From: Smithellaceae bacterium
GTDB taxonomy: Bacteria; Desulfobacterota; Syntrophia; Syntrophales; Smithellaceae
Assembly (NCBI GenBank): GCA_035416785.1
Contig: DAOLNX010000002.1
Coordinates: 867-64,866 of the forward strand
Length of the DNA stretch: 64,000 nucleotides
Direction of reading: 5' to 3'
The translations under genes were made by a program, and so were the position numbers. The notes beneath the pieces were generated by a model, which worked only from the letters and a program-made list of their open reading frames with translations, was not told the origin of the DNA and made no database searches. This document shows, in pieces, positions 27,718 through 29,838 of the stretch (positions are counted from its first letter, which is position 1; each line of letters starts with the position of its first letter).

Positions 27718-29838
27718 ATGAGTTTTGGTCAAAGAGTTTTTTGCGGACAGGTGACGAAGGAGAATGTCGGCCGCCAGGTGCGGCTTTGCGGGTGGGTGGA
27801 TGCATTCCGGGATCACGGCGGCCTTTTGTTTGTCCATCTGCGCGATCGCAGCGGTATTCTGCAAATTGTTTTTAATCCGGAACTTGCCTCGGGAGAGGTT
27901 ATGCTCCGGGCATCGGCGCTGCGCTCCGAATATTGTATCACCGTTGCGGGCGAGGTGAAAATCAGGCGGGAAGGCACGGAAAATCCCCACATCGAAACGG
28001 GCGACGTCGAGGTCATTGTTACGGAACTGACCGTGCTTTCCGAAGCGGATGCGCTTCCTTTTGCCGTTTCGGAAAAGGCAATGATTGCCGGGGTGTCCAG
28101 CACCGGCACCGATCAGGTGGCAGAAGACCTGCGCCTCCAATACCGGTATCTGGACATTCGAAGGCCTTCCATGAGAGACAATTTAATGGCCCGGCATCGC
28201 ATTTTTCAATGCGTGCGTGAATTTCTGGATTCCAAAGGATTTCTGGAAATTGAAACGCCCGTACTTACGTCCAGTACGCCGGAAGGTGCCCGAGATTACC
28301 TGGTGCCCAGCCGCGTGCACGAGCGGAAGTTTTACGCTTTGCCCCAGTCGCCGCAGCTTTTCAAGCAGCTGCTCATGATCGGCGGCCTGGAGCGTTATTT
28401 CCAACTGGCCCGCTGTTTTCGTGACGAAGATCTGCGCCCGAACCGCCAGCCGGAATTTACGCAGCTCGACATCGAAGCTTCGTTTATCGACGAGGAATTT
28501 CTTTACGATCTGGTCGAGGAACTGACGGTGAAAATGTTTGCCGTCGGCGGTATCGAGCTTTCCCGTCCCTTTCCGCGTATGACGTATGCGGAGGCGATGG
28601 ATGCCACAGGCTCCGATCGTCCGGATTTGCGCTTCGGTCTTCGCTTTGTGGATGTGACAGATTTGTTTGCCAAAACCCACTATGCGATCTTTCGTCAGAT
28701 TCTGCAGAGAGGCGGATGCATTAAGGGCATCAACGTCAAGAGCCAGTCTGAAAAACTCAGCAAAAACGTTTTGCAGAATGAATATGCCAGGGAAATCGCC
28801 CCGTCGTTCGGCGCCAAGGGCATGACCTGGATGCGCGCCGAGGGCGGAAAACTGGAGTCCAACATCGTCCAGTTTTTCAGTCCCGATGAGCTCGATGCGC
28901 TATGGAAAAGGTTTGAGGTGGCCGACGGAGATGTGCTGATCATGGTTGCCGATCCTTCCTATGCTGTCGTTACGCACGCGCTGGGTCAGTTGCGTCTACA
29001 TCTGGCGCACCGTCTGGGGTTGATTCCGGAAAACCTTTTCTGTCCGGTCTGGGTGACGGAATTTCCGCTGTTTGAACCGGCGGAGGATGGATTTGTCACT
29101 TCCAGTCATCATCCTTTCACCGCGCCGGAGCGCATTGATTTTGATCCGAAAAATATCGAAGAACTGTTGTCCCTGCGTTCGCGGGCCTATGACCTGGTCA
29201 TGAACGGAGAGGAGCTGGGAGGCGGCAGCATCCGCATCAACCACCGCGACGTGCAGCGCAAAATCTTTGCGGCCCTGGGGCTGACGGAAGAGGAAACCAG
29301 GGAAAAATTCGGGTTCTTTCTGCGGGCATTCGATTTTGGAGCGCCGCCCCATGGCGGTCTGGCCCTGGGGATGGACCGCACCGTATCCATGATTCTTCAA
29401 ACCCAATCAATCCGGGAGGTTATCGCCTTTCCCAAAAACCGCAGTGCTGCCTGCCCCCTGACCGGAGCACCCTCCACAGTGAAAAAGGAACAACTGGTGG
29501 AACTGGGGTTGTTGAATATGGGCGGTCAGGATGTTTTGCCGGGAACCGCGGCAAAGGAAAACAAGCTTGATCATCTATCCTGGGTGTCGCGTATTGGTAT
29601 TTCCGGGGAAGAGAGGCCGGCAATCGAAGAGGGGATTGCGCAGGCTGAAAAACTGGCCCGGCTGGTGTCGGAAAAGGCGGGGTCGGAAGAGCCGATTTAT
29701 ACAGTGGCGCCGGTTTGCAACCGCACCCGCCCCGGAAAAGAGGCGGTACGTTCGGTTTTTTCGCAAAACGATCAGCTGTTCAAGAGCGCACCGGCGGTCA
29801 AAGGCCGTTATTTTAAAGTTGCCAGCATTCTGGAATAA
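27718..29838 (+). CDS. aspS: Aspartyl-tRNA synthetase fused in frame to a C-terminal GatC-like domain
   Basis: Class II AspRS motifs are present ([24 protein letters not shown]). The normal C-terminus lies near LVELGLL. The frame then continues 29563-29838 as a 91-aa GatC-like sequence ending [11 protein letters not shown]. ATG 27718 has AAAGGA upstream. Confidence 0.85.
   Translation: [706 protein letters not shown]

Follow-up and report, generated by a model that had tools for sequence, protein, structure and literature searches.

Conserved aspS::gatC fusion gene followed by a triad-less gatA-like gene and gatB in Smithellaceae and related bacteria

Organisation of the aspS::gatC locus

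Analysis of a 64,000-nucleotide (nt) stretch of contig DAOLNX010000002.1 from a Smithellaceae bacterium (assembly GCA_035416785.1), referred to below as the 64-kb window, showed three consecutive genes on the forward strand. These were aspS::gatC, a fusion gene in which aspartyl-tRNA synthetase (AspRS) is continued by a GatC-like tail, a gatA-like gene, and gatB. The fusion open reading frame (ORF) ran from 27691 to 29838 (+), encoded 715 amino acids (aa) and was uninterrupted by any stop codon or frameshift. The start used in NCBI records, ATG 27718, gives a 706-aa form of the same protein; all residue numbers in this work follow the 715-aa numbering. The features of the locus are listed in Table 1.

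The AspRS part of the fusion protein was recognised on Pfam by tRNA_anti-codon (57.9 bits), tRNA-synt_2 (389.4 bits) and GAD (62.8 bits), and on NCBIfam by the aspS equivalogs NF001750 (756 bits, cutoff 443) and TIGR00459 (696 bits, cutoff 374). Judged by these scores, residues 1-608 form an ordinary bacterial-type AspRS, the C-terminal block of which closes at Leu608 (nt 29514). The coding letters of the GatC tail occupied 29563-29835 and were followed by TAA at 29836-29838, directly upstream of the gatA-like gene and gatB, which is the usual position of gatC. A preliminary description of this DNA had claimed that AspRS runs in frame into a GatC domain; this was borne out, as the ORF contained no stop and the tail was homologous to GatC over its full length, and the coordinates given there were all correct, including that of an internal ATG at 29518 (Met610). 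Its further claim that no separate gatC is present agreed with the tblastn search of the 64-kb window with GatC and GatA sequences, in which no second gatC or gatA relative was found.

Table 1. Coordinates of the features at the aspS::gatC locus (positions of the 64-kb window)
Feature	Position	Strand	Basis
AspRS part of the fusion ORF (OB anticodon-binding domain, class II catalytic core, GAD insertion)	27691..29514	+	Pfam, NCBIfam
Linker, 16 residues (609-624), including the non-conserved Met610	29515..29562	+	junction alignment of 68 sequences
GatC-like domain, 91 residues 625-715 (KLDHLSW...YFKVASILE), with TAA 29836-29838	29563..29838	+	tail profile, PF02686, phmmer, NF009460, dN/dS
GatA-like subunit, 398 aa, without the Ser-cisSer-Lys triad	29850..31046	+	Pfam Amidase, TIGR00132, alignments, 78-genome survey, AF2/Foldseek
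gatB, 475 aa from MEFEAV	31049..32476	+	Pfam, NCBIfam
Weak terminator-like hairpin and T-rich tail, about 50 nt past gatB, possible operon end	32528..32554	+	consensus scan only

Identity of the C-terminal tail

A tail profile (A1) was built from 26 tail sequences and compared with the PDB. The top four places went to distinct GatC chains from bacteria, with alignments that ran over their whole length: 2df4_C of Staphylococcus aureus (E=4.7e-5), followed by 3al0_C (Thermotoga maritima), 3h0l_C (Aquifex aeolicus) and 4wj3_C (Pseudomonas aeruginosa). The Pfam family PF02686 was matched by 25 of the 26 tails at E<0.1, with a best value of 1.6e-6. A single-sequence phmmer search with the tail against 1.8 billion representatives led to free-standing GatC proteins of 92-101 aa (P0046-P0048), which themselves scored 50-67 bits on PF02686 and are bona fide GatC. 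On these matches the tail is a true, though divergent, GatC; the absence of any GatC signal, which the preliminary description had named as grounds for rejecting the fusion, did not occur, since homology was clear at the family level. Two other candidate relatives of the tail, a tandem-repeat protein (P0035) and a TPR protein (P0049), were rejected as spurious matches caused by low complexity or repeats.

The same architecture was found in NF009460 (PRK12820), a catalogued family named bifunctional aspartyl-tRNA synthetase / aspartyl/glutamyl-tRNA amidotransferase subunit C. Residues 9-715 of the fusion protein aligned to positions 17-723 of the 723 model positions with 1310.2 bits, and the 112-residue C-terminal piece alone gave 116.8 bits over positions 612-723. 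The full score was about 5% short of the equivalog cutoff of 1379, a shortfall that fits a clade sharing this architecture but diverged somewhat from the rest. Because the score falls below this cutoff, NCBI labels this protein and most of its relatives just “aspartate--tRNA ligase”. The suggestion that the architecture was undescribed was not upheld, as a family bearing its name aligned with the protein from end to end. No paper on a natural AspRS-GatC fusion or on a triad-less GatA was found in the PMC and bioRxiv literature searched, reviews included. The AspRS-GatC fusion is a conserved and already named database family, not a new one; what may be new is its obligate pairing with a glutaminase-dead GatA.

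Conservation of the fusion

The exact protein was present in NCBI (HOC58890.1 and HQM44306.1, both from metagenome-assembled genomes (MAGs) of Smithellaceae), JGI and ENA assemblies, and each of several public sources had the identical fusion protein on at least 5 contigs. Among homologues of the full protein, the best 120 (77-100% identity) were nearly all 705-707 aa long, except for one of 715 aa, one of 698 aa and one of 688 aa, which is a partial record. This length indicates that the tail is present in these homologues too. Cultured Syntrophus buswellii and Desulfosalsimonas propionicica were among the 120, and one relative carried the automatic annotation “Aspartate--tRNA(Asp/Asn) ligase” in one source.

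Relatives of the tail were encoded in 168 genomes in a scan of one genome per species, and the best 80 of these were used for the locus comparisons. The taxa of the best 80 were mostly Smithella, Syntrophus and other Syntrophales, with Desulfobacterales, Syntrophobacter, Syntrophorhabdus, Nitrospirota and NC10, and the closest relatives were Smithella MAGs (82-83% identity), which points to a Smithellaceae/Syntrophales bacterium as the source of the window. Wherever the contig covered the whole gene, core and tail lay in one unbroken match (67 of 67 full-length copies); stop codons flagged in relatives were few and fell upstream of the start codon. The conservation of the fusion in related genomes, which the preliminary description had left as a test, was thus confirmed, and a lost stop or frameshift between the AspRS core and 29563 was effectively excluded, both by the open ORF in the window and by the 67 open relatives. 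Rough Nei-Gojobori estimates, with saturated dS, put the ratio of non-synonymous to synonymous divergence (dN/dS) at about 0.13-0.24 in the tail, against about 0.07 in the AspRS core. By this measure the tail is clearly translated and under purifying selection.

A related gene on a JGI metagenome contig (locus L001, Ga0645781_00353, 260 kb) was split at 5940-6004 into calls of 556 aa and 149 aa. The split arose where a G/C homopolymer, tatgggcccctcc, carries a 1-nt indel; the indel lies in the AspRS motif-3 region and not at the junction, and most likely reflects an error of sequencing or assembly. Many “aspartyl-tRNA synthetase” fragments of about 149-159 aa in the databases begin, for similar trivial reasons, at the conserved Met of MDR… or MIL…. 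The initial protein search with the tail had returned short fragments only (71-159 aa); a free-standing protein of about 150 aa made of the AspRS C-terminus and GatC, or a programmed frameshift, was considered and rejected, as the fragments begin at the first Met past a contig edge or an indel.

Fusion operons of 75-80% identity were also found under MAG labels of unrelated phyla (L003, L006, L009, L011, L014-L019, L045, L055 and L057), namely Pirellulaceae, Verrucomicrobiota, Chloroflexota/Dehalococcoidia, Acidobacteria, Kiritimatiellia and Competibacteraceae. Mis-binning or mislabelling of Syntrophales-like contigs seems a likelier explanation of these labels than wide horizontal transfer.

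Linker and internal start

Across 68 genomes the length of the linker varied by no more than 1-3 residues, and its LPG motif was nearly invariant. The mean identity of the linker was 66%, with non-synonymous divergence no higher than that of the tail. This pattern suggests that the linker is no free spacer and that it may pack against something or serve as a recognition site.

The preliminary description had raised the production of a free GatC from the ATG at 29518, and this found no support. The corresponding Met was present in only 4 of the 68 sequences. Nor did the junction hold an internal start with a Shine-Dalgarno (SD) motif that was conserved among the 68. An in-frame start with an SD-like motif occurred in the junction in 21 of 68, at scattered positions; by comparison, the real start of the gatA-like gene had such a motif in 55 of 68.

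The GatA-like subunit

The ATG of the gatA-like gene lies 11 nt past the stop codon of the fusion. The preliminary description had called this next gene gatA; a GatA-like gene is indeed in place, and what went unnoticed is that its product lacks the catalytic triad. The protein scored 176 bits on Pfam Amidase and 216 bits on TIGR00132 (gatA, cutoff 481.1). With 398 aa against about 485 aa in canonical GatA, it is some 87 aa shorter; about 51 residues are missing from the N-terminus, and ahead of the GGSS motif a loop of about 24 is absent.

Canonical GatA is a glutaminase with a Ser-cisSer-Lys triad, of which Ser178 is the nucleophile (PMC2330236). Alignment to five solved GatA chains gave the counterparts of the triad. 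In the GatA-like protein, Gln28 (IAIQPN) took the place of the catalytic Lys in the A(V/I)KDN motif (Lys79 in S. aureus), Glu105 (DMTGESR) that of the nucleophile Ser in DTGGS(I/V)R (Ser178), and Thr81 that of cis-Ser154. The last two assignments follow from the S. aureus row of the alignment, which sets residue 89 opposite 162, so that Glu105 stands at Ser178 and Thr81 at cis-Ser154. Arg358 and Asp425 of S. aureus GatA, which we take to be its glutamine-binding residues, also lacked equivalents in the alignment, KRRI being replaced by KSYL and Asp by Phe. In the survey of 78 genomes the Lys position was Gln in 75 of 78, the cis-Ser position was variable, and the nucleophile position was Glu in 75 of 76 readable sequences, with one Asp. 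As read from these alignments, the Ser-cisSer-Lys triad is lost throughout the GatA-like family and its replacement by Gln and Glu is conserved.

The AlphaFold2 (AF2) model of the GatA-like protein had a predicted local distance difference test score (pLDDT) of 69.8 and a predicted template modelling score (pTM) of 0.78, and the top 10 Foldseek matches in the PDB were all GatA chains (TMq 0.64-0.73). The GatA fold is kept in the predicted structure. Relatives formed 846 clusters at 90% identity, and the 120 matches listed were almost all about 396-406 aa long, with extremes of 377 and 416. PGAP names the protein “hypothetical” or “amidase family protein”.

GatB, gene order and neighbourhood

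The gatB gene begins 2 nt past the gatA-like stop codon. Its product scored 327.6 bits on Pfam GatB_N, 135 bits on GatB_Yqey, 554.8 bits on NCBIfam NF004012 (cutoff 338) and 486 bits on TIGR00133 (cutoff 315), and by these scores it is an intact, ordinary GatB. The order fusion, GatA-like, GatB was found in all of the 80 loci with enough downstream contig (76 GatA-like and 72 GatB clusters), with median lengths of 706 aa, 399 aa and 477 aa, respectively. From the gene order, the conserved unit is a three-gene operon of aspS::gatC, the gatA-like gene and gatB. The flanks of the 80 loci differed, and no conserved adjacent glutaminase or other partner was found in them. Promoter and terminator scans were uninformative, and the hairpin listed in Table 1 is not evidence of function.

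Upstream of the operon and on the same strand, 18393-23535 encoded FtsH, dihydropteroate synthase (Pterin_bind), AcpS, TsaE and an aspartokinase with ACT domains. These housekeeping genes are an ordinary chromosomal context and not a mobile element. A tRNA-Pro(GGG) gene (24942-25018) lay inside the 5' end of a mechanical ORF of 911 aa (24900-27635). The real gene in that interval encodes a penicillin-amidase-family protein (Pfam, 649 bits) and stops 56 nt short of aspS; its start is probably near 25050, at a sequence that resembles, by eye, a lipoprotein-type signal peptide, and it was not conserved beside the operon in other genomes. Directly downstream of the operon, 32545-43395 of the minus strand encoded hybrid sensor histidine kinases (PAS/GAF/Cache with HisKA, HATPase_c and receiver domains) and a SpoIIE-type phosphatase, a run that is unrelated to the fusion operon.

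Comparison with known systems

The bacterial Asn-transamidosome, solved from Thermus thermophilus (3KFU) and P. aeruginosa (4WJ3), consists of a non-discriminating AspRS, tRNA-Asn and GatCAB. The components are the same as those of the operon, the two-step chemistry is presumably the same, and chains of this complex were among the best structural and sequence matches of the GatA-like model and of the tail profile. In the known Asn-transamidosomes, AspRS and GatCAB are separate proteins bound largely through tRNA (PMC9499178). GatA is an active glutaminase in these complexes, whereas here GatC stands covalently on AspRS and the GatA-like subunit has no triad.

A tethered GatC has a precedent in chain C of 3AL0, a GatC-linker-GluRS protein that was engineered for crystallising the Gln-transamidosome of T. 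maritima, and in which GatC tethered to a non-discriminating synthetase assembles into a transamidosome. This chain differs in being artificial, in carrying GatC before the synthetase (the reverse of the order here), and in using GluRS, a class I enzyme, in place of AspRS. A mutational gatC-gatA fusion polypeptide was described in Mycobacterium smegmatis (PMC7541841), and GatF of the yeast mitochondrial GatFAB is a GatC replacement with a fungal N-terminal extension (PMC4027206). Both are alike in showing that the GatC “belt” tolerates attachment or extension with GatA-GatB assembly kept, and both differ from the present case in that no aminoacyl-tRNA synthetase is the partner and GatA is catalytically intact. 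AtzE/AtzG (6C62) and the T6SS (type VI secretion system) effector Tse8 (bioRxiv 10.1101/733030) are GatA-related amidase-signature proteins that have a GatC-like peptide as partner or dock into the transamidosome; unlike the protein described here, they are not encoded between gatC and gatB in a translation operon. The loss of Lys, cis-Ser and Ser is a feature of the GatA-like protein of this operon.

Proposed function and alternative explanations

The operon probably encodes a covalently tethered Asn-transamidosome, in which the triad-less GatA-like protein would be a scaffold or ammonia conduit and GatB would work with free ammonia or with ammonia from another donor. The GatC tail of each AspRS monomer would nucleate its own GatA-like/GatB module by wrapping the GatA-like protein and GatB in the manner of free GatC, so that each subunit of the AspRS dimer would have its own amidotransferase, attached permanently and not recruited through tRNA. 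That the AspRS is non-discriminating is suggested by its fusion to GatC and by the presence of gatB in its operon. The synthetase would then make Asp-tRNA(Asn), which would be passed to GatB without release and amidated to Asn-tRNA(Asn). The loss of the triad in the GatA-like partner would change the route by which the complex must obtain its amide nitrogen. As the GatA-like protein cannot be a Ser-cisSer-Lys glutaminase, the most plausible source of this nitrogen would be free ammonia or ammonium that enters the tunnel, the alternative being some donor in trans; amidotransferases use NH4Cl as a donor in vitro (PMC4027206). Speculatively, energy-limited syntrophs in ammonium-rich habitats may in this way spare the ATP of glutamine synthesis.

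A number of observations weigh against the tethered complex. The preliminary description had expected a Pfam scan to return tRNA_anti-codon, tRNA-synt_2, GAD and GatC; the first three were found, and the tail of this protein alone reached only 17-18 bits on PF02686 against a gathering score of 23. On TIGR00135 it reached 16.7 bits against a cutoff of 47.1, though the alignment spanned positions 3-93 of 93. The AF2 model of the full fusion, made from a shallow alignment (77-84% identity), was of too low confidence (pLDDT 50.5, pTM 0.33) to show more than helices in the tail. At the former active site of the GatA-like protein, the conserved Gln and Glu might stand for new chemistry instead of inactivity. 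The conserved length and LPG motif of the linker may mark a recognition or processing site, and together with the in-frame ATG at 29518 of this window they speak for a fusion that is only a precursor, from which GatC is freed by linker proteolysis or internal initiation, the fusion merely fixing the stoichiometry of co-expression. No protease site was identified, however, the Met was rare among the 68 sequences and the starts with an SD-like motif had no conserved position, in contrast with the gatA-like start; the engineered 3al0_C also shows that a tethered GatC is able to assemble into a complex. The precursor is on this evidence quite improbable. An artefact of assembly (a lost stop or frameshift), or a C-terminal extension unrelated to GatC, could be argued from the sub-threshold Pfam score of this tail and from the related L001 gene that was split by a 1-nt homopolymer indel, but that split falls inside the AspRS core and resembles a sequencing error. 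Against it stand the identical protein in independent NCBI, JGI and ENA assemblies, the uninterrupted gene in 67 of 67 genomes, the purifying selection on the tail, the clear family-level homology to GatC and the existence of a curated hidden Markov model (HMM) for the family, and it is effectively refuted.

An accessory or paralogous operon also weighs against the tethered complex as the proposed function. A canonical gatCAB, perhaps with another AspRS or an AsnRS, would do the housekeeping in that case, and the operon would serve, for example, in tRNA-dependent asparagine biosynthesis at high ammonium, or would be partly vestigial. This agrees with the lack of a catalytic triad in a GatA-like subunit that falls far short of the gatA equivalog cutoff (216 bits against 481), with its PGAP names and with the existence of vestigial GatCAB-derived complexes (AtzE/AtzG, 6c62). 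It is opposed by the high conservation of the AspRS part, which also scores well over the aspS equivalog cutoffs, by a GatB at the normal equivalog level, by the fused state of all the best 120 AspRS relatives, by an operon intact in 70+ species, and by the lack of a second gatA or gatC within the 64-kb window. We regard the accessory role as unlikely. In a 2014 survey, the gatB genes of some members of the Desulfobulbales, which may or may not carry the fusion, were reported to be outliers in phylogeny (PMC3927822).

Beyond the tethered Asn-transamidosome itself, it is conceivable, though rather doubtful, that in Syntrophales and several anaerobic lineages the fusion operon is the sole tRNA-dependent amidotransferase, glutaminase-free and making Asn-tRNA, perhaps also Gln-tRNA, straight from NH4+. 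The remodelled GatA-like protein, with its conserved Gln and Glu and its deleted N-terminus and loop, would admit ammonium into the tunnel. If this is true, the ATP for glutamine synthesis would be saved in energy-starved syntrophs at high ammonium.

Significance

In the known transamidosome, tRNA-mediated non-covalent assembly keeps mischarged Asp-tRNA(Asn) off the ribosome. A natural covalent transamidosome, if so assembled, would be a ready system for the study of substrate channelling, stoichiometry and product release, and a stable particle for cryo-electron microscopy. The labels “aspartate--tRNA ligase” and “hypothetical” or “amidase family protein” leave hundreds of Syntrophales and Desulfobacterota genomes seemingly without gatC and gatA, and this seeming absence distorts predictions of pathways and auxotrophy. 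The conserved triad-less GatA poses the question of whether a tRNA-dependent amidotransferase works in vivo without a glutaminase, and the finding would gain interest if the operon proves to be the only amidotransferase in its genomes.

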